Shown: positions 2,745-51,066 of the stretch, one piece after another | Numbering within the stretch: the stretch's first letter is position 1 | Layout of the letters: the number at the start of each line of letters is the position of its first letter | DNA from: an uncultured Chloroflexia bacterium | GTDB taxonomy: Bacteria > Chloroflexota > Anaerolineae > CG2-30-64-16 | Assembly (NCBI GenBank): GCA_963774265.1 | Contig: CAVZDU010000007.1 | Span: forward strand, 160,001 to 224,000 | Reading direction: 5' to 3' | Length of the DNA stretch: 64,000 bases | The notes under the pieces: generated by a model | Told to the model about the DNA's origin: nothing | What the model saw: only the letters and a program-made list of their open reading frames with translations | Database searches by the model: none | Position numbers and translations under genes: made by a program

Positions 2745-4530
2745 TGTAATGGGATCATACGTTTGTCCTCTACATAGGGCAGAGAGGTTTGTCCGGTTGG
2801 CGCGGTGGCTTCCACGGGCAAGTCGTGATCCAGGCCTGCTGGGGGGTGTAGACCTCCAGACCGATGTCGGTGGGGACCACGGCGAGCGTTTGGCCCTTGT
2901 GGCCGATGCCGACGAAGTAGAGGCGGTTGTGAAAGGAAATCTGGCCGTTCTGGTTGACGCGGCGACTTGGCAGAGTGCAGTTCGTTGTTGGTGACGTAGG
3001 AGGGGTCTTGGGCTGCGCGGGAGTGGCTTTGGTGGGCGGTTGCGGATACAGATGCTTACAGGGTAAGGTCTTCTGCGTGCCATCAGGTAGGCTGACCGTC
3101 CAGGTATCCTGGCTGCGTTGGATGGTCAGGGTCTGACCGGTCCAGGCGATCCCGACATAGTAACGGTAGCACTGAAGCGTCAGACAGCCTGCGCGATCTA
3201 TCTTGCGGCGCACGGGCTGCGGCAGGGCTGGTGGCGGCGGTGGTACGGCTGGTTGCACGGCTTGTGCGTGGAGGTCCCAGGTACGTTGCCAGCCATCCGC
3301 CACTTGACCGACGGCCGACCAGCCAGTGACCGTCACGGTGATGGCCTGGTGCGCATAGCGCCGGCTGAACGGCAAGCTGCGGCCGGCCAGGCGGATGTGT
3401 CCGTTGGCATCTACTTGCCGGGATAGCACCAGGGACTCTTGGGTGAAGGGCACTTGCGCAGGATCGAAACCGGCCGGTACGCGGCGTGCACTCGATTGAT
3501 AGACCGTCACCGGGGGCTGATCCTGACAGCGGCTGTGACAGCGCTGCTCGTTGTAGAAGTGGCGGGCTGTTTCGACGGCCTGCGGCAGCTGCGGGTCATC
3601 GCCCGGCGGCAAGACGACTTCCTGGCGACACGTGCGCACATAGCGTTCGACGACGCCGTTCCACCAAGGCTGTTTGGGGCCCACTAACAGGTGATAGACG
3701 CCCAAGGCGCTGAGCACGCGCGTCAGGGGACTCGGTAGGCCGCTCACCCCGTCGTACCACAGCTTGTCATGATCGGTCTTGACGATTCGGGGCAGACCAT
3801 ACTGCTGGGCGACATTCAGAAAGCTGTGCACGACCAACGCCTCGCTCAAGCGTTGCGCCGTCAGCTGGCCCAACTCAAAACGGCTATGCAGATCCAGCCA
3901 ATGCAGGGTGTACCAGATACTCCCGTCCGGGAGGTGCGTTTCGTGGATGTCCGCCGCCCAGATCAGGTTGCAGGTCAGGTAGTCGATGTGCCGCGGCGGG
4001 GGGCGCTCCGACGCTGGGGCGGGCGGATCCAGTTCCGGATGGCGAGCCAGGACCCGCCGCACGCGGCCGACACTAACCCAGCGTTGGCGTTCGGGCTCGT
4101 TACGCCACTGCCAGCGCAGTTGCTTGGCAATCTGGCGTCGCCCCCAAGCCCCGTGGGCTTGTTTCAACGCACACATCGCCACCTCGATCTCGGGCGGTGT
4201 CTGTTGCGGCGAGCGCTGCGGCCGGGACGAATGATCGCACAGGCTGGTCATCCCGACCGCCGCATCATAGCGGCCCACCGTGCGGCGCACCCAACGCACC
4301 GGACGCTGCAACCTGGCCGCAATCTCACACTGACGCAGCCCACGCTGTTGCAGTTCGATGGCCAAACAGCGATCAGCGTAATCTCGAGCCGGACATCGTG
4401 GCATGGCAGCACCCCCTCGCTCCACAAAGGAAGTACTGCCAGCTTAGGCGATTTATCTGTCGTCGATCAAGGGCAAGAGGACAAACGTCTGTGCCCACTC
4501 TGTAGAGGACAAACCTCTCTGCCCACTACA
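2745..4530 (-). mobile_element. IS481-family-like insertion sequence (1786 bp)
   Basis: TGT...ACA termini, about 30-bp imperfect IRs (TGTAATGGGATCATACGTTTGTCCTCTACA vs TGTAGTGGGCAGAGAGGTTTGTCCTCTACA), and a 7-bp target duplication CCTTAGT at 2738-2744 and 4531-4537. Confidence 0.9.
2770..4404 (-). CDS. IS481-like transposase: HTH, rve integrase core, three C-terminal beta-domain repeats (alternative start GTG 4425)
   Basis: SRPQRSP, WGRRQI, DDE motifs IWAADIH / VKTDHD / NGVVERYVRT, YNEQRCHS. GAGGGGG RBS-like sequence upstream of ATG 4404. Confidence 0.88.
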   Translation of the reverse strand: MPRCPARDYADRCLAIELQQRGLRQCEIAARLQRPVRWVRRTVGRYDAAVGMTSLCDHSSRPQRSPQQTPPEIEVAMCALKQAHGAWGRRQIAKQLRWQWRNEPERQRWVSVGRVRRVLARHPELDPPAPASERPPPRHIDYLTCNLIWAADIHETHLPDGSIWYTLHWLDLHSRFELGQLTAQRLSEALVVHSFLNVAQQYGLPRIVKTDHDKLWYDGVSGLPSPLTRVLSALGVYHLLVGPKQPWWNGVVERYVRTCRQEVVLPPGDDPQLPQAVETARHFYNEQRCHSRCQDQPPVTVYQSSARRVPAGFDPAQVPFTQESLVLSRQVDANGHIRLAGRSLPFSRRYAHQAITVTVTGWSAVGQVADGWQRTWDLHAQAVQPAVPPPPPALPQPVRRKIDRAGCLTLQCYRYYVGIAWTGQTLTIQRSQDTWTVSLPDGTQKTLPCKHLYPQPPTKATPAQPKTPPTSPTTNCTLPSRRVNQNGQISFHNRLYFVGIGHKGQTLAVVPTDIGLEVYTPQQAWITTCPWKPPRQPDKPLCPM

Positions 4531-5790
4531 CCTTAGTGGCGCTGGCCAAGCGCAGCGTTTGGGACTGGAAGCGCTGTCCGACCTGTGGCGGGACGTGGAC
4601 GAGTTGCTGGGGCACGTATCCCCGTCACCCCTGGTTCCTGGATCGGGGCCGGCAGGAGGTGCGCATCCAGCGCCACAAGTGCTACGCCTGCAACAAGACG
4701 TATTCGGAGCGGTCGGCCCTGCTGGTGCGCGGTAGTTGGTATGCCCGGGACGTTCACCGTTGTGCGGTCGACCACTGGCAACACGGCGGCACCTCATTAC
4801 GGCGGACGGCGGAGTTGCTGCGCTCCTGGTTGGGGCACCAGGAACGTTGGTTGCTCTGGCGACCGCTGGATCCCGAGAGCGGCGAGCGGTGTTATTTGGC
4901 GGCCAGCACCGTGCAGCGCTGGCTGGACGGGGCCGGCAAAACGGCTCAAGCCAGCGTGGACGGGCAACTAGCGGGCATTGCCCACACGCACGCGGTGGGC
5001 ACGGACGGCTTATGGGCCAAGCTGAAAGGCAAGGCGCAGCGGGTCGTGCTGCTCATCGTGGACAGCGTTACCGGCCTGGTCTATCCGCCAGTCGTGGCCA
5101 AAGGCGAAGGGTCGGTAGGACCGTGGCAGCGGCTGTTTGAACGGGCTAAGCGGGCCGGACTGGACGTGGATGCCCTGCGCGGCGCAACGTCCGATGGCGC
5201 ACAGGGGCTGCTGGCTTACTTGCGCCGGAGCCTCGCCTGGGTCCAGCATCAGCGCTGCGTCTGGCATTTGTGGCGCAACCTGGGAGGCGAGCTCGCCAAA
5301 GCCGCCAGCGAAGCGGCGGGCGACCTGACCGGCGAAGCTGCCGAGCACATCCGCAAGCAAACCCGAGATGAGTTGGGCGGGCTGATTCACAAGATCATGG
5401 ACGCCCAGAGTTACACTGAGGCGGAAGCAGCGTTAGCCACGCTGCTGGGGCATCCGCTAGGCGCAACCCTCGGCAAGCTGCTCAATGAGCAACTCGATCG
5501 GGTACTCGTGCACCTGCTGGCTTACTACCAAGGCTTGCAGCGGGTGACACCCGAGTGGTACTGGCGAGATTTTCGCTTACGACTCAGCCGCGGCCGCAAC
5601 CACCGCTCGGATCAGCGCCTGGAGCGGGCGACCCTGGTCTGGGCGATCTACCATAACTTCGAGCCCGCTCAAGGGAGGTCTGAGCGTAAACGTCATTACC
5701 GGCATCCCGGCCAAAGTGCCCTCCAAGTCGCCGGCGTGCCACCCGGAAAAGTGAGCTACCTGGACGCTTTGGGCGTGTAAACGCCCACGG

Positions 5791-13294: not shown

Positions 13295-14732
13295 CTACCT
13301 TGCGTCAGCGACGATCTTGTCAAGTGCCTGCTGTACATCCGGCGGCAGCGGCTCGGGCTTGTGCGTTGCCAGGATCTTCAACGCCTTCTCCTGTGCGCGC
13401 TGCCGCAGTGTCTTGCCGCCGGACCGGCTCCAGTCCTCGTATGGCTTGCGGTCAAACAGCTTCGGATACCAGTCCTTTCTGTAGTGTAAGCGCGTGTGGT
13501 CCGCGCCCATGAAGTCGCCGTGAGGGCCAATCTCGTCGATCAGGTCTCAGCGCGAGGGTCTCCTCGTTGATCTCTAGCCCCTTCATGAACTGCTTGGTGT
13601 ATGCAATCAGTTCATCGCAGATGACGATCTGCTCGATCGAATTGCACATGCCCCCTTCCAGGTAGCCAACGTCATGGACCATCTCTGCACCCGCAAGGGT
13701 TTCCAGGATGATGGAGAATGCGGCCTCAGCCGCGGCCTGTTCATCCGGTATCTTCGAGTCGCTGCAACCGGCCAACCCGAAAATGGGCAGCCCGTAGCGG
13801 TGCGCCAATTCAACCAGCATGACGCGGTTGTTGGGATCCGAGTACGCGTCGACCATCGTGCGCATATCGAGCATGTCATTGACGCCCCCGGTCAGGATGA
13901 CCGGTGCACCCTCGCGCTTGATCTGGCTGATGACAAGACCTGCCAGCTCGCCCGCGTTGGCCAGTGCGATCGCGCCGGCCGCGGTGACCGGTCCGCTGAC
14001 GCCGCGCAGGACGACCGGCGTGTAGGTGGTGGGTAGGCCCTTCTCCGCCATGAAGAGTAGTTTCTGCAACGCCTCGCCGTTGTGTCGCAGTGGATGGGTG
14101 ACGTTGATATAAAGCGCACAGATCGGGTTGCGCCGCAACGCCTCTTCTCCACCGGCCACTGCCTCAGCCATGCGGACCACGTCCACACAGCCAGGAAATT
14201 CGGTTGTGACGAAGAGGATGGGCTTCGTGCTGTTTATCAGCATCGCGCGCATCTGGTGACGATCGGACACCGCCTGATCCACGTCAGATGCGATGCAGAA
14301 GGACATGAGGAAGTCGATATTGGGTAATGCGTCGCATACCAGTGTTGCCTCCTCGATATCGTGCAGTGTCCCGACGCGGCGCTCGCCCGTTCGCACGTCA
14401 ATCACGTTCAGGCAGTCTGAGCCGGGACCATAGAAGACATTGTTGCGCTCCAGGGGCATCACGCGGCGACCATTGCGGTCGCAGATGACCGCACGCTTGG
14501 GCGCGATGCTCAAGGCCCACTCGACCAGGCCCGGGGGAATGCGCACGCGGTTGCCATTTTCGATCTTCAGCCCCTTGCGCCGGAGCAATTCAACCGCCTC
14601 TGGCTCGTAGAGGACAACGCCGGTGCGATCCAGGATTTCCAGGCTAGCATGGTGAAGCCGCTCGGTCTGGTCGTCCGAAACCTTGCGAAAGCGCGGCGTG
14701 TCGTAGGAGGTATAATTGCTTTGAACTGTCAC
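13295..14732 (-). CDS. Non-pyrrolysine MttB-superfamily (trimethylamine/quaternary amine:corrinoid) methyltransferase, +1 frameshift near 13547
   Basis: LHHASLEILDRTGV, SGPVTAAGAIALANAGELAGLVISQ, GLAGCSDSKIPDEQAAAE, HDVGYLEGG. Removing one A gives EETLALDLIDEIGPHGDFMGADHT joined to ORF 13295-13510. GTG 14732 with GAAGGAG RBS. Confidence 0.88.
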
Positions 14733-14734
14733 GA

Positions 14735-15664
14735 TCAATGCTCCTTCGGTTTGGGATTGAAGGCTGTTGCGCGCCGTGCAGCTATGTCCAACGCTTCTTC
14801 GACCAGGACGGGCAGCACGGCCAGGCGGTATTCGCGCGACGCGCGCAGGACGTTGCTGCGTGGGTCCGCGTCGGACAGGGCGAGCTGTGCGGCCTCCGAG
14901 AACGTCTCTTGCGTGGGCCGGCGACCGACCAGAAACGCCTCCGCATCGGAAGCGCGGATTGGACACGGGCCAACCGGTCCCATGGCAATGGCGGCAGACT
15001 CGATCAGATCGCCATCGAGCACGATTCTGGTCGCGCAGCTGAGTGTTGGCAGCACCAGGGAGGGCCGCCTTCCCGCCCGCTGCCACCCCGTGCCCCAGGG
15101 ATGCCTCGGAATGGGGAAGCGGATGTGTGTCACGAGTTGCCGCGTGGAATCGATGCGTGAATGGCCCGGGCCGGCAAAAAGTGAGGCCACGGACCGCCAT
15201 TCCGAAGCGCCCCCGTGGGATTGGGAACGGTCCTGCAGGAACGTTGCGCCGCTCAGCGCTTTGACCTGAACTTCCGCATCGAGCGCGATGGCGATGATCG
15301 CACCATCGGCCGCGGGCATGGCCTGAACCAGGTTGCCCACCCATGTTGCCGCGGTTTGGATGGCTAACGCACCCACGGACCCAGCAGCGTCGGACAGCGC
15401 ATGGACGTGATTGGCGAGATACGGGTGCTCGCGCAGCGCGACAAATGGCACGGCCGCGCCCACGGTGATCCAATCCTCGCCCACGTCGATTCGCCCCAAA
15501 TCCGGAATGCGCGTGATATCGACGAGGCACGCAACGTGGAGCTTGCCCTTTTCGATGTCAGGAAGGACATCGGTGCCGCCCGCGATGATGCGCGCCTGCC
15601 CATCGTAGGCCGCCAGCAGTCCGAGCGCCTCCTCGTCCGTCGAGGGGAACAAATACTCGGTCAT
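14735..15664 (-). CDS. Molybdenum hydroxylase FAD-binding subunit (CoxM/CutM/XdhB-like)
   Basis: IIAGGTDV, ATWVGNLVQAMPAADG, RASREYR motifs. Confidence 0.88.
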   Translation of the reverse strand: MTEYLFPSTDEEALGLLAAYDGQARIIAGGTDVLPDIEKGKLHVACLVDITRIPDLGRIDVGEDWITVGAAVPFVALREHPYLANHVHALSDAAGSVGALAIQTAATWVGNLVQAMPAADGAIIAIALDAEVQVKALSGATFLQDRSQSHGGASEWRSVASLFAGPGHSRIDSTRQLVTHIRFPIPRHPWGTGWQRAGRRPSLVLPTLSCATRIVLDGDLIESAAIAMGPVGPCPIRASDAEAFLVGRRPTQETFSEAAQLALSDADPRSNVLRASREYRLAVLPVLVEEALDIAARRATAFNPKPKEH

Positions 15665-43768: not shown

Positions 43769-44443
43769 TCAGAAACGATCCGCTGTGGGGTCCCAGAAGT
43801 CACCCCCCAGCCTCAGGCCGGCGAAGATCTGGCGCATCTCATTCGGCCTTGGGCGCCGGGAGTCCGCCTGCAGGCGCGTGGCGTACCACGTCGTCGCCAA
43901 CCCCCACAGCTGATCCATTGTAACCACTGGCCGCGCCGGGGTGTTGTGGGCTGCGCACCAGGCCTGGACCTGTTCTTCCGACCGGAAGAATAGCATGTTG
44001 GCTCAAGTGAAGACGATATCATCCCACCACCTGGCGGCGGGGACGAGGCAGTGAAAGAGCCACTCTGAGGGCCCGGGACCGCTCAGGTCCACCGCCAGAT
44101 GCAGCGGCTCGCCGGATTCCGCGCAGTGGGAGTGGACGATGCCGGGCTTGTGGAGCGCGGCCAGCACCCCGAGCGCATCCCACGCGCAGACACCGAAGTA
44201 CTCGAGTCCACCGGCCTCCACGTGGTGCTGAGTCGGAACGCCTGAGAATGGCGGCGCCATGCGGATCGAGACCCCGTCCGTCTCGAGCACCAGCACCCGC
44301 TGCTCGCGCAGCCGCGCGTACGCGTCGGCCACACTTTCCACGTTCGAATCGACGCGTCGGGCGACCTCCTCCGGAGAAGGTCCCCTCCCGGTCGCCGCGA
44401 AATGGCGGTAGATTTCCAGTTTGACGTGGGTGTCGAAGTCCAT
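43769..44443 (-). CDS. MerB-like organometal lyase, probable selenoprotein (in-frame TGA at 44003-44005 = Sec147, 224 aa)
   Basis: ORFs 44003-44443 and 43769-43996 are in the same frame, separated by TGA GCC AAC. Motifs MAPPFS, CAWDALG, SHCAESG, WWDDIVFT-U-ANMLFFRSEE. SECIS-like hairpin follows the TGA. Confidence 0.8.
43973..43990 (-). promoter_or_regulatory. Candidate bacterial SECIS hairpin
   Basis: 12 nt after the TGA the mRNA reads UUCUUCC-GGUC-GGAAGAA, a perfect 7-bp stem with a G-first apical loop. Confidence 0.62.
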
Positions 44444-44467
44444 GTGGCGTCTCTCCTATTCTCTCGC

Positions 44468-45682
44468 TCATAGTTTACCTTCCGGCCGCCGACCTGCGCG
44501 GATGACCGCCACCTGCTCAGCATCAAACGGCGGATCGAACAGCGCGGGCGTCAGGTGGTAGGTGCGGAAGAGATCCGTGATGAAGCGCATACGCTCGGCC
44601 AGATTGCCCCAGTCAGCGACGCGGGCGCTGCGATCCGCGCCTGCCATGACCTGCGCCAGGAATGCAGCCAGTTCGGGACGGTCAATCATTGTCTGGCTGT
44701 CTGGGCTCCTATCAGGGAGGTCCTGGCCGAGCTGCAATACCTCGCCCGTGGGCAGTTTCAGCGTCATCAGGGTCGCAGTGATGACCAGACGTCCGGCCTG
44801 CTGAACCTCCTCTGCCAACTGGTCGCGTGCCTGGAGCAGCGGACCCAGCCGTCGCGCCAGCCTGGCCAGCCAGAAGCGCAGCCGCGACGAGCGGTCGGGG
44901 AGAAGTTCATCAATGAGGTGTTGGCGTAACACGCGCGGATGGATCACCGGCGCATTCATGGCCTCGACGATTTCGCCCTGCAGCCGCGTCTGCTCGTGGA
45001 AGCCGATCTCCAGGTTGGCCAGCAGCAATAGTTGCGCTTTCTGCCTGAGATCATCGGTAGTGATGGCCTGACCATAGTGCTCGAAGGCCTGGGCCAGGTA
45101 TCGCTGGCCGTCCGGGGGATCGCCCGGTCGAAGGCCCTGGCTGAACGCGACCAGACCGTCACGCGTAACGGCCAGCCCGCCGTTCTCGAATAGCGCCAGG
45201 AAGCGCGCGAACTCAGCGCCGATCTCGGCGAATACCTTTACGTTGCCGCGCGCCACCGCGTCACTGGTCCTTTGAAAGGCCGCTACGGGATTCACCGCGT
45301 TCCACACGGCATCCACCGCACCGAAGAAGCTGCGGGGCTGCCGGCCGCGGAGCGCAGCGCTGGCCTCCAGCATGGTGCGGGCGTTCACCTGGGCTGCTGG
45401 CGTCTCGCGGAGCAGCCGTTCCAGCGCAGCAAGCAGATCCTCCCGGCGGATGCTCTGGCCCGCCTGCTTGGACGCCCATGTGGCCACCGTGCACCAGTTT
45501 GCGCCCGCGCCCGTCAACCGCGCCATCGCTGCGGAGAGGTCGTGGTAGGCCTGCGTGATCTGCAGGTTGCGCACGACAGGATCGTCCAATGCTGCGATCC
45601 GGCGGACATCGTCCACCGCCGGGGGCGCGCTCCGGGACCGTTCCATTGCCCCGAGCCGGTCAGTGGAAGGGCCTTCCATCAT
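44468..45682 (-). CDS. Conserved hypothetical protein
   Basis: 404-aa ORF with motif-like segments [58 protein letters not shown]. No function recognised. Confidence 0.7.
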
Positions 45683-45760: not shown

Positions 45761-46177
45761 CTACTCGATCACCACCACCCCATCTTGCCTGATCGTCGCC
45801 ATCCCACCCTCTGCCAGGCTGGCGAAATCCTGCGCCGCCAACGCGACCACGGGCACGGGTTTCCCGTACATCTCGTCCGCCACGATGGACGCGAGGCTGA
45901 GGAAGGCGTCCGGTGTGGCAGTGAGGACCGCTGCCGGCGCCGTGCCGCCGCGTACGGCCTCCAGGAAGACCGCGGTCGTGGTGCTCGAACCCTTGGTGAA
46001 CGGGATCGCCAGCACCCGCGCCGCCGCGATCTGTCCGGAGAGCGGGTGACGCCGATCGATAATCTCACCGGTGGCCGCATTGTAGCCGCCCCAGAAGCTC
46101 AGTGGCACGTCACTGTAGAGGAGTTGCCCCGTTGCCTCGCCCGCGACCAACGCCCGGCCCTGCATCACTCGCGCCAT
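45761..46177 (-). CDS. Aconitase X small (swiveling, DUF126) subunit
   Basis: PLSFWGG...TGEIIDRRHPLSGQ, KGSSTT, PVV. Start ATG 46177 overlaps the large-subunit end. Confidence 0.85.
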   Translation of the reverse strand: MARVMQGRALVAGEATGQLLYSDVPLSFWGGYNAATGEIIDRRHPLSGQIAAARVLAIPFTKGSSTTTAVFLEAVRGGTAPAAVLTATPDAFLSLASIVADEMYGKPVPVVALAAQDFASLAEGGMATIRQDGVVVIE

Positions 46178-47459
46178 AACCTCTCGTCCCTCACAACGCG
46201 ACCCGCGGCCGCTGAGCGTACGCAATCGGCCATGCTGCCGTAAACCACCTGCGTGTTCAGCATCCCCGGCGCGTAGTACGCGTACTTGGCTGAATTCGTC
46301 ATCAGCGTCCGGATCTCCGGCGGGAGCATAGGCGAGGCCAGGGGGCAGGTGTCCACGGTGATCTGCCCGCCAAAGCGCCGCAGCGGCTCCAACAGCCCGC
46401 TGCGTTCGGCCAACGCCGCGACAGCCCGGCTGGTGGTCACCAGGAAGCGGACACGCGGCCGCCGAACCTGCCCGACGAGGAGGGGCGCGAGCTGCCGGAA
46501 CTCGGCCAGCGAAAAGTGAGGACTGCCGAGGAGGACCAGGTCCAGCCCGTCGCCCACCGCAGTCGTCAGTTCGAGTCACGCGGCGCGCAGTTCCGGCATG
46601 CCCGCATGGACGGTCGCGAGGGGGCGCGGCCCTGGAACGCCGCTTCGAGCGTAGGCGCCTCGGGCGTCACCCCGACGAGATGGAAGAGTGCAACCGCGCC
46701 CGATGACGACGCGGCTGCGCCGAGCGCCTTGAGTTGATCCTCGGTGGGCTGGACGGTGATGCCGTCGATCACCGGGATGCGAGCATGCTCGGACTGCACG
46801 CCGCGCAGCCCGAGTATGCTCGCGGCCTTGCCGGTCAAGTGCCCCAGCACAGGGTAGAAACTGTCATCGGCCTGCAGAGCCTCGGGGATCGAGTCGAGCC
46901 GGATGAGGAGTTGGCCGGCCCGGTTCTCGGTCAGGTGTAGGCCGGCCGAAGGGACGCGGCCGGTGATGGCCGCGCAGATGTCGAGCAGATCAGGGTAACG
47001 CTCGGTGCGCGCACCGAGGACCGAGTTAGCGAACGCAATCGCATTGGACTCACCCCACGCAATCTGCTGGCCGAAGGCAGGACGGGGCTCGCTTTGATAG
47101 GGGGCGCAAGTGAAGCTGGGGATGCAGCCCATCCGCCGATAAGCGTCCATCTGGCGTCGCGCCTTCTCGGCCCAATCAGGCGGTACGGACCACTCCGTCC
47201 AGCCATGCTCGTCCACGCCGCTAACGTTGGAGGTGGAAGGCACGGCGACGGTCGCGCCCAGGTCGGCCAGCCGCTCCGCGTACTCGAGTGTGGCGTCGCC
47301 CATGAAGATGGTGCTGTCGATGTGTGCGGCGGTGATGTCGAGCAGTCGCTCCGCGCCGAAGACATCGGCCATGCGCACAATGATCCGCATCGCCATCTGT
47401 GCGCCCGGCCCGCGTTCCCCGGCGAGCAGGGTACGGTCGTAGTCGGTGAGGTGGAGCAT
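46165..47459 (-). pseudogene. Aconitase X large (DUF521) subunit disrupted by a frameshift (~46622) and in-frame TGA (46576-46578)
   Basis: AHIDS, FTCAPY, AWGESNA, NSVLGART, LFHLVGVTPEA. C-terminal part LGSPHFS, DTC, MTNSAKYAYY lies in another frame. Confidence 0.8.
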
Positions 47460-47723
47460 ACGCCTCTCCATCGCAAGCCGAATTCCCGAAATCGCCGTCA
47501 TTATAGCATGAACCGACCGTTCAAAGCTGAGGTCCCCCCCCATTTTGACTTTACGCATTTGTGATGGCATGTGCTATTCTATTCGCCGCTGGTGCTGGTC
47601 AAAGCAGATCGCCGCCGTTACGGATGTAGCGGCGGTTTCGCGCCCCAATGAGCCCCCGCGTCCCACCAACGACCGGTCAGACGCCGCCACACTCAACCCA
47701 CAACTTCAGAAGAGGAGAATCGT

Positions 47724-49626: not shown

Positions 49627-51066
49627 GTAACTGTTCAGCGTTACCCTTGACAGGGTGTGGCATGATTACGACATGACCGGGGATGAAGCGCAAGCCTTTG
49701 GGTATTTGCGAGCGGAGAATGCGGCGTTGCGGCAGCAGTTGGCGCTAGCTGTGGCGCGGATTATCGAGCTAGAGGCGCAACTGAACCAGCGCGGTGAGCC
49801 GCCGCCGTTCGTGAAGCCGAACCGGCCGCAGCCGACGGAGCCCAAGGGGCCGCGGAAAAAGCGGGCGGCGGCGCACAACACGTCCCGGAAGCGGTCGCAG
49901 CCGACGCGGATTGAGCGGCACGTGCTGGAGCATTGTCCGGACTGCGGCTATCGCTTGCGCGGCGAGAGCATCGCCTACACCCGGGAAGTGATCGAGTTAC
50001 CGCCGCCCCAGCCGGTGGACGTGATCGAGCATCAGGTGCTCAAGCGCTGGTGTCCACATTGCGCGACGTGGCACAGCCCGAAGTTGGCTCTGGGCGGTCA
50101 AGTGATTGGGCACGGGCGGATCGGGGTGCGGGTGGCGAGTTTGGTGAGCTATTTGCGCACGACGTTACGGCTGCCGTTTCGTTTGATTCAGAGCTATCTG
50201 GCGACGCTGCACCACTTGCAGTTGAGTGTCGGGGAGATCGTGGAACTGACCCATGCCGTGCGCCAGCAGTTGCAGCCGCAGGCCGATCAGCTCAAGGTGG
50301 CGCTGCAGACCAGCACGGTGACGCATGGGGATGAAACGGGTTGGCGGGAGGCCGGTCAGAACGGCTACGCCTGGGCCTTTGTGACCGCTGGGCCCGCCGC
50401 GGTGCGCTACTTCGAGTTTGCGCACAGCCGGGGTCATCTGATTGCCCAGCGCATTTTGGGCGCTGACTGGCGGGGTTGGTTGGTGACCGACTTCTATGCG
50501 GCTTACAATCTGATCCCCGGGCGCCATCAACGCTGCTGGGTGCATCTGCTGCGCGATCTCCACGACCTCAAACAGGCGCAGGCGGATAACCTGACAGTCG
50601 TACAATGGGCGACCGACGTGCGCCAGCTCTACGACGAGGCCCAGGCCTGGCTCGCAGCACACCCAGCACCGCCGCTGGCGGAACGGCGCACTGCGTACGC
50701 CGACCTTTTCACCCGGGCCTGTCGCTTGGGCGAGCAGTATGCCCTGACCTATGCGCATCCGTGTTGCACCCTGGCCAAACGTTTGCTGCGCCACCAGGAC
50801 GAGTTGTTCCAGTTCATCTTGGTGCCCGGGTTACCAGCCGACAATAATCTGGCCGAGCGCAGCATTCGGCCGTTGGTCATCATGCGCAAGATCAGCGGCG
50901 GCTCCCGCAGTGAGGAGGGCACGAAAACGCGCTTGACCTTGGCCAGCTTGCTCCATACTTGGGCCGCCCGCAACCTCAATCCGTTTCTGGAATGCTATGC
51001 GGCCCTCCGGCAACCGACCGCCACCGCACCTCCATAAACTTCCTTACCCGAACGGTGAACACTTAC
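49627..51066 (+). mobile_element. IS66 family element, single-ORF (ISBst12-group-like), 1440 bp
   Basis: IRs GTAACTGTTCAGCGTT / GTAAGTGTTCACCGTT (reverse complement of right end). 8-bp target duplication CCCTGGAA at 49619-49626 and 51067-51074. Confidence 0.93.
49655..51037 (+). CDS. tnpC: IS66 family transposase TnpC (start may be ATG 49673)
   Basis: Coiled coil, CPDC...CPHC, HGDETGW, VTDFYAAY, HQRCWVHLLR, DNNLAERSIR. Confidence 0.92.
   Translation: MWHDYDMTGDEAQAFGYLRAENAALRQQLALAVARIIELEAQLNQRGEPPPFVKPNRPQPTEPKGPRKKRAAAHNTSRKRSQPTRIERHVLEHCPDCGYRLRGESIAYTREVIELPPPQPVDVIEHQVLKRWCPHCATWHSPKLALGGQVIGHGRIGVRVASLVSYLRTTLRLPFRLIQSYLATLHHLQLSVGEIVELTHAVRQQLQPQADQLKVALQTSTVTHGDETGWREAGQNGYAWAFVTAGPAAVRYFEFAHSRGHLIAQRILGADWRGWLVTDFYAAYNLIPGRHQRCWVHLLRDLHDLKQAQADNLTVVQWATDVRQLYDEAQAWLAAHPAPPLAERRTAYADLFTRACRLGEQYALTYAHPCCTLAKRLLRHQDELFQFILVPGLPADNNLAERSIRPLVIMRKISGGSRSEEGTKTRLTLASLLHTWAARNLNPFLECYAALRQPTATAPP

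Follow-up and report, generated by a model that had tools for sequence, protein, structure and literature searches.

The window (the whole 64-kb stretch of DNA analyzed here) carries on its minus strand one frame of 224 codons whose sole internal break is a TGA (Table 1). Under translation table 11, this frame falls into a 146-aa and a 75-aa open reading frame (ORF) with TGA-GCC-AAC between them, and with U in place of the TGA it yields 224 residues (...WWDDIVFT-U-ANMLFFRSEE... around the break). A preliminary description of this DNA had read the two ORFs as a single gene with a stem-loop starting 12 nt after the UGA. Inspection of the frame agrees with the former point and RNAfold with the latter, placing the hairpin in the minimum-energy structure. 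This hairpin, UUCUUCC-GGUC-GGAAGAA, comprises a 7-bp stem and a GGUC loop and lies inside the coding sequence, whose own terminator is also a TGA.

Table 1. Features of the putative selenoprotein gene and other annotated ORFs of the window.
Feature	Coordinates	Strand	Details
Read-through CDS, predicted MerB-like selenoprotein	43769..44443	-	224 codons plus terminal TGA 43771..43769; ATG 44443..44441
146-aa ORF	44443..44003	-	N-terminal part of the frame
75-aa ORF	43996..43769	-	C-terminal part of the frame; ATG at 43996
Shine-Dalgarno-like AGGAG	44453..44457	-	9 nt upstream of ATG; motif match only
Cys86 codon (MerB Cys96 equivalent, motif C-A-W-D)	44186..44188	-	HMMER alignment
Asp89 codon (MerB Asp99 equivalent, putative proton donor)	44177..44179	-	HMMER alignment
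In-frame TGA, predicted selenocysteine 147 (MerB Cys159 equivalent)	44003..44005	-	Alignment and conservation in relatives
SECIS-like hairpin	43973..43990	-	5' arm 43990..43984, GGUC loop 43983..43980, 3' arm 43979..43973
404-aa ORF	44471..45682	-	No Pfam family
Aconitase X pair	45761..47570	-	AcnX swivel 45761..46579, AcnX catalytic 46566..47570
Transposase-like ORF	2773..4425	-	rve/Mu-type
Transposase-like ORF	4536..5777	+	Mutator-type
Transposase-like ORF	49655..51037	+	IS66-type
MttB ORF (trimethylamine methyltransferase family)	13455..15530	-	692 aa; MttB domain at residues 271-661

Upstream of the gene, a 404-aa ORF ends 24 nt before the start codon. It matches 3,794 database proteins (E ≤ 0.001), of which the few with names are hypothetical proteins of Anaerolineae, Caldilineales and Promineifilum, hinting at a Chloroflexota origin of the window; it was not found beside the selenoprotein gene in other genomes (86 related loci). 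Immediately upstream of this ORF, on the same strand, is an aconitase X pair. The window also contains three transposase-like ORFs, the IS66-type copy being ~5 kb from the selenoprotein gene, and an MttB ORF in which the ~270 residues preceding the domain match nothing, so that its true start may be later.

A Pfam scan of those window ORFs that reach 110 aa (53 in all) found no mer-operon families, in line with the preliminary description, which had noted the lack of mer genes here; shorter genes such as merP fall below this size limit. None of nine window neighbors was found by tblastn in the 86 related loci, and once shadow ORFs overlapping the selenoprotein gene were set aside, the largest cluster of neighbors comprised 6 of these 86 loci. 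With no conserved neighbor, gene context therefore gives no hint of function. The MerB-like gene is the only PF03243 gene in its assembly. MerA was not found above its cut-off in the source genome (84% complete) or in any of five other carrier genomes. Two MerA-like pyridine-nucleotide disulfide oxidoreductase matches fell below that cut-off (G000:C3:80356-81336, L110, and G000:C1:694218-695273, L111); each contains one TGA, which could be a frame break, a gene boundary or the mark of a further selenoprotein.

Decoding of the in-frame TGA

The source assembly (10 contigs, 5.5 Mb) encodes the selenocysteine (Sec) machinery: selA (506 bits), selB (293 bits), selD (382 bits) and a tRNA-Sec(UCA) (73 bits, anticodon TCA) were all four found above their curated cut-offs. 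All five of the other tested genomes with a Sec-form of the protein also contained selA. The selD gene (G000:C1:464620-465552, L019) is likewise interrupted by an in-frame TGA, located where Sec or Cys usually stands (...LSACAG-TGA-ASKLPP...), so SelD itself would be a selenoprotein in this genome.

The preliminary description had named the sel genes, alternation of TGA with Cys among homologs, and conservation or covariation of the hairpin as the observations by which a Sec reading could be judged, and each of them turned out in its favor. A scan of one genome per species returned at least 504 stretches encoding a relative, and the best 80 of these, at 61-73% identity, were analyzed. At the aligned codon, every one of them has TGA. 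They span about ten phyla (Acidobacteriota, Chloroflexota, Verrucomicrobiota, Gemmatimonadota, Ca. Eisenbacteria, Planctomycetota, Anaeromyxobacteraceae, Ignavibacteria, Calditrichaeota and single others), and the carriers among these best 80 of at least 504 loci are mostly soil metagenome-assembled genomes of Acidobacteriota, Verrucomicrobiota, Gemmatimonadota, Chloroflexota and others. Within the class of the window, 7 of 201 sampled genomes had a match, including the window's own; the other six comprise five with a single TGA at the site (28-53% identity) and one (L027) with TGC. A metagenome scan with the Cys-form P0133 as query returned six loci, all of them Sec-forms with TGA (6/6). The closest homologs among the matches listed (73% identity) belong to other phyla, and hits from the same class reach 21-53%. 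Because closer homologs occur in other phyla than in the same class, we infer that the subfamily has spread horizontally.

Protein databases contain thousands of matching predicted proteins, and of the 120 best hits, 113 have a length of exactly 146 aa. When matches were clustered at 50% identity, 63 of the 150 representatives terminate precisely at residue 146 and 42 continue through the site with Cys; the remainder have Trp (5) or a gap (13) at the column, end earlier (12), start after it (4) or carry other letters there (11), mostly in visibly frameshifted or fragmentary rows. The split between proteins that stop at residue 146 and proteins with Cys has the form of the classical Sec/Cys pattern. 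A FastTree phylogeny of the N-terminal 146 residues (112 of 151 rows used, with fragments dropped) needs at least 12 Sec/Cys changes, of which its well-supported branches (13 of 109) force only three to four. Repeated switching between Sec and Cys is therefore likely.

One alternative hypothesis is that the TGA is a true stop and that the locus is a broken or split merB-like gene, with a 146-aa fragment as its product and perhaps a second product of 75 aa initiated at the ATG three codons past the TGA. Public gene calls treat the locus in this way, as the many 146-aa hits attest, and separate C-terminal ORFs starting at residue 150 are annotated among the cluster representatives (P0232, P0234, P0248, P0271). 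The downstream ATG is also kept in 78 of the 80 loci. However, the divergent members L023, L118, L120 and L122 have ATC or ATT in place of this ATG and nevertheless keep the frame, so separate initiation fails to explain the second half. After the TGA, Trp at +15 (80/80), Cys at +16 (78/80) and Pro at +25 (79/80) are conserved with free synonymous change, which points to purifying selection at the protein level on the frame 3' of the TGA. Such selection, together with an invariant TGA across many phyla, is unlike decay. Furthermore, Cys stands at this codon in more than a quarter of the representatives (42/150), a hairpin that appears constrained at the RNA level follows it, and the Pfam domain and predicted fold need both halves of the frame (see below). 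We consider a true stop very unlikely.

A second alternative is that read-through of the TGA inserts another amino acid in place of Sec, for instance Trp, Cys or Gly, through a variant code or near-cognate suppression. Trp occurs at the column in 5 of the 150 representatives and also in P0003 (rows with Trp include P0003, P0135, P0148, P0153 and P0241). Short contigs translated by gene callers under code 4 or 25 may explain these rows, or the codon may genuinely be TGG. Against a variant code, the selenoprotein gene and many neighboring ORFs end in TGA, which is thus a stop in the source genome, and the Sec machinery is complete. Reading of the TGA as another amino acid therefore seems hardly credible. 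A soil metagenome from a different sample, available as contigs, shares 0.05 of the sequence words and contains short contigs of relatives (80% likeness) rather than of the source organism. Over 43967..44029, three of these contigs differ at 43997 and 43998 and not at 44003..44005, which is weak evidence on the codon itself. Taken together, the locus is almost certainly a genuine Sec-decoding gene. We infer that Sec is in fact inserted at this UGA, which would be decoded by SelA, SelB, SelD and tRNA-Sec.

The hairpin downstream of the TGA

Bacterial SECIS elements are hairpins lying a short way downstream of the UGA, with a G in the apical loop. Like these, the hairpin at this locus begins shortly 3' of the UGA and has G in its GGUC loop. 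No SECIS family of Rfam matched it, the sole match being a chance hit to a miRNA model (E = 6.9). Its folding energy is ordinary (z = -1.66), with 13 of 200 shuffled sequences folding equally well, and the hairpin alone could be due to chance; its significance lies in conservation across relatives and not in energy.

Among the best 80 of at least 504 loci, the codons that form the hairpin are nearly frozen: TTC in 80/80, TTC in 79/80, CGG in 79/79, TCG in 79/80 and GAA in 76/80. This synonymous freezing is confined to the hairpin codons in those 80 loci. Elsewhere, residues that are equally conserved vary synonymously, with five codons for Arg at +13, TTC (43) or TTT (33) for Phe at -17, and four codons for Val at -13. 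This pattern indicates that the hairpin is constrained at the RNA level.

Changes within the stem tend in the same direction. Pairing survives four changes of U-A to U-G and one of C-G to U-G, and both-sided replacements occur at the closing pair (C-G to A-U in L098), at stem pair 4 (U-A to C-G in L119 and L121) and at stem pair 3 (C-G to G-C in L122 and L123). Alignment A3 has 58 rows, chosen by hand with variant rows deliberately kept: besides the window, it contains 46 of the 80 genome loci, 6 from metagenomes and 5 from the class. Of its cells, 97% pair, and three of the seven stem pairs have compensatory changes. Only 1 of 500 shuffles reaches three compensatory pairs, and controls slid along the sequence pair at 46-71%. 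This covariation rests on four sequences and at most three events. Alignment A1 (85 rows) has nine pairs, two of them additional lower pairs; there, covariation did not exceed that of shuffles, and the two lower pairs were unpaired in 31 and 25 of 83 rows; these two pairs were therefore dropped from the stem model. The covariation comes from few events; the stronger argument for the hairpin is the freezing at synonymous sites.

The peptide encoded across the hairpin is also conserved, in part perhaps at the protein level, as FRSEE is present in some Cys-forms too. In Sec-forms, its residues are found in 21-22 of 22 sequences; in Cys-forms they are less conserved (R 10/35, S 16/35, E 15/35 and E 9/35). 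We considered whether FFRSEE might be exclusive to Sec-forms and rejected this, since some Cys-forms carry FRSEE-like peptides and the motif is merely more conserved in Sec-forms. We propose that UUCUUCC-GGUC-GGAAGAA would direct decoding of the UGA as a SelB-type recoding signal. Near-invariant across phyla, this putative SECIS would also be a handy search key for the whole subfamily.

Predicted fold and putative activity

The Pfam family PF03243 (MerB) matches the read-through protein across the TGA, over residues 66-187 (E = 8.2e-27; 94.1 bits against a cut-off of 27), and a conserved C-terminal tail extends beyond this domain (residues 188-224). The AlphaFold2 model, built from a 57-row alignment, has a pLDDT of 96.5 and a pTM of 0.92. 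A Foldseek search of the PDB with this model returned MerB or MerB2 structures as all of its top 11 matches (TM 0.61-0.74; 21-26% identity), the best being 5c17 (E = 5.8e-12; TM 0.69/0.74). Weak winged-helix matches (DtxR and LexA folds) to the N-terminal 60 residues rank after MerB, and this part also has weak helix-turn-helix Pfam hits. By these predictions, the read-through protein is a MerB-fold protein, and both domain and fold require the two halves of the frame.

In HMMER alignments to the PDB chains 5c17 (MerB2; 3.8e-8) and 3f2g (MerB), U147 falls on the equivalent of Cys159, as the preliminary description had argued from the spacing of the UGA, and C86-A-W-D89 falls on Cys96-x-x-Asp99 of MerB. 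Cys107 aligns with the residue that we take to be MerB Cys117. In alignment A2, Cys occupies the Cys86 position in every one of the 22 Sec-forms and in 33 of the 35 Cys-forms; at the Asp89 position, 21 of the 22 Sec-forms have Asp and the other has Glu. The protein thus retains the catalytic residues of the MerB family as Cys86, Asp89 and, in place of Cys159, the predicted Sec147. Among Cys-forms, by comparison, 14 of 35 (e.g., P0149, P0177, P0220 and P0246) have Cys at the Asp89 position, which makes the motif C-x-x-C, and an additional Cys is present at position 154 in 9 of 35. The C-x-x-C variants suggest a metal-binding protein rather than a lyase, and with it functional diversity in the family.

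In MerB, Cys96 and Cys159 bind mercury, and Asp99 protonates the leaving carbon. All three residues are essential, as stated in the accessible text of Christakis et al. (2021). Drawing on this established biochemistry, we propose that Sec147 replaces the second catalytic cysteine and that Cys86 and Asp89 would function as Cys96 and Asp99 do. In an organometal compound, the metal would be bound by the thiolate together with the selenolate, after which protonation of the carbon by Asp89 would release the hydrocarbon, with the metal ion staying bound to S and Se. We put the probability that the locus encodes one 224-residue MerB-fold selenoprotein, with Sec147 for Cys159, acting as a Sec-dependent organometal lyase without a mer operon, at roughly 0.8. 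The Sec-for-Cys MerB-like protein put forward in the preliminary description is supported by the Sec/Cys alternation, the hairpin and the Sec machinery, and its activity and substrate are extrapolated from MerB. The carbon-metal lyase function, taken by itself, is what we would expect with reasonable confidence, and an organomercurial substrate would be our default guess.

Two considerations weigh on the lyase reading. Hg-Se bonds are very strong, so turnover could be slow. In addition, with no MerA found and no conserved neighbor, handling of the released metal ion is left unexplained. Given the lack of a MerA partner and the strength of the Hg-Se bond, the substrate may contain a different metal, or the protein may bind rather than catalyze. 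The protein could thus be a genuine MerB-fold selenoprotein that is not a lyase and instead serves as a high-affinity binder of a soft metal or metalloid (Hg(II), Cu(I), Se or Te, for example), as its chaperone or sensor, or as a single-turnover trap. Such a role would agree with the apparent lack of MerA, a mer operon or a conserved neighbor to take the product, with the resemblance of the N-terminal 60 residues to a winged helix, and with the C-x-x-C of 14 of 35 Cys-forms, which suggests metal binding over protonolysis in part of the family. However, Sec-forms keep the proton-donor Asp (21/22) together with the whole MerB catalytic core, and selenocysteine is typically used at catalytic sites. 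There is a precedent in MerB, which binds other metals and becomes a copper binder on change of one residue, according to the accessible text of Haft and Gwadz. On balance we regard a binding role as improbable and favor a Sec-dependent lyase.

Comparison with known MerB-like proteins

The nearest precedent is SaoL (NCBIfam NF040728), and the caution in the preliminary description that Sec-containing MerB-like proteins of this type were already known is well founded. In the accessible text of Haft and Gwadz (bioRxiv 10.1101/2022.07.06.499078; J Bacteriol 2023), SaoL carries a CU dipeptide ~50 residues before its C-terminal end, belongs to a nine-gene SAO locus and is confined to strict anaerobes. 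Its Sec aligns with MerB Cys159 (bioRxiv 10.1101/2022.07.06.499078), so Sec at this position of a MerB-like protein is, on that account, already known. As far as that text describes SaoL, the window protein shares with it the MerB fold, Sec at the Cys159 position and truncation at the UGA in databases, as well as having no tie to the classical mer resistance operon and an uncertain substrate. The dipeptide and its location differ, CU ~50 residues from the end in SaoL as described there against T-U, 77 residues from the end, here. Thr precedes Sec in 80 of 80 sequences (best 80 of at least 504 loci). Against NF040728, the window protein scores 42.4 bits (cut-off 140), with a match that spans residues 26-118 only. 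No SAO-locus genes were found in the window, and a search of the source genome (84% complete), run without a positive control, found neither SaoC nor SaoB. We therefore rejected an identification as SaoL, given a score below the cut-off, TU in place of CU and no SAO locus.

Identification as a MerB proper of a mer operon was rejected as well. The NCBIfam MerB cut-offs (NF033555 and NF009710) were not reached (50 against 193 bits and 42.1 against 200 bits), the window has no mer families among the ORFs scanned, and no MerA above its cut-off was found in the genome (84% complete).

A full-text literature search combining MerB, organomercurial lyase or alkylmercury lyase with selenoprotein or selenocysteine returned no relevant case besides SaoL. 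In the accessible part of a 2026 review of the prokaryotic selenoproteome, SaoL (CU) is the sole entry under MerB-like proteins. A 2022 review lists, in its accessible part, an "alkylmercury lyase MerB-like protein" whose example accession is the one given under SaoL in the 2026 review. None of the terms MerB, mercury lyase and SaoL occurs in the main text of GOS 2008, Peng 2016, deep-Sep or BSepDB, whose supplementary tables may list the subfamily. It seems somewhat more probable that the subfamily has yet to appear in print than that it has.

If the protein is what we propose, surveys of merB that require full length and Cys159 would miss the family, as public gene calls cut it at the UGA and leave a 146-aa "organomercurial lyase" or hypothetical protein. 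Correcting this misannotation would add a family to the prokaryotic selenoproteome and alter the counts of merB-like genes in environmental studies of mercury. The family could explain part of the mer-independent demethylation of methylmercury in soils and sediments or, equally, could have as its target a different carbon-metal or carbon-metalloid bond that no known enzyme acts on. Sec at the metal-binding site of a MerB-like enzyme had been described, in the sources accessible to us, only for SaoL of strict anaerobes, and the present protein would be a concrete candidate for testing whether Sec enhances cleavage of carbon-metal bonds. We speculate, tentatively and with clear doubt, that these genes represent a second, undescribed family of Sec-dependent organometal lyases that has reached soil bacteria in many phyla by horizontal transfer and operates with no mer operon.

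Like canonical MerB and MerB2 (PF03243; PDB 3f0o, 3f2f and 5c17), the window protein has the predicted fold, the Cys-x-x-Asp motif and the register of the third ligand. Unlike them, its third ligand would be Sec in place of Cys, it has the additional C-terminal tail of residues 188-224, and no merA, merR, merT or merP was found nearby (ORFs of at least 110 aa). Its closest counterparts in design are the Cys-forms of its own subfamily (the L027 protein, P0126, P0133 and P0150), which share its length, architecture and D-D-I-x-x-T-[C/U] motif and have Cys at position 147, where the window protein has the predicted Sec. Judged by sequence comparison, these proteins make up a distinct, much larger subfamily in which Sec and Cys alternate, separate from both canonical MerB and SaoL.
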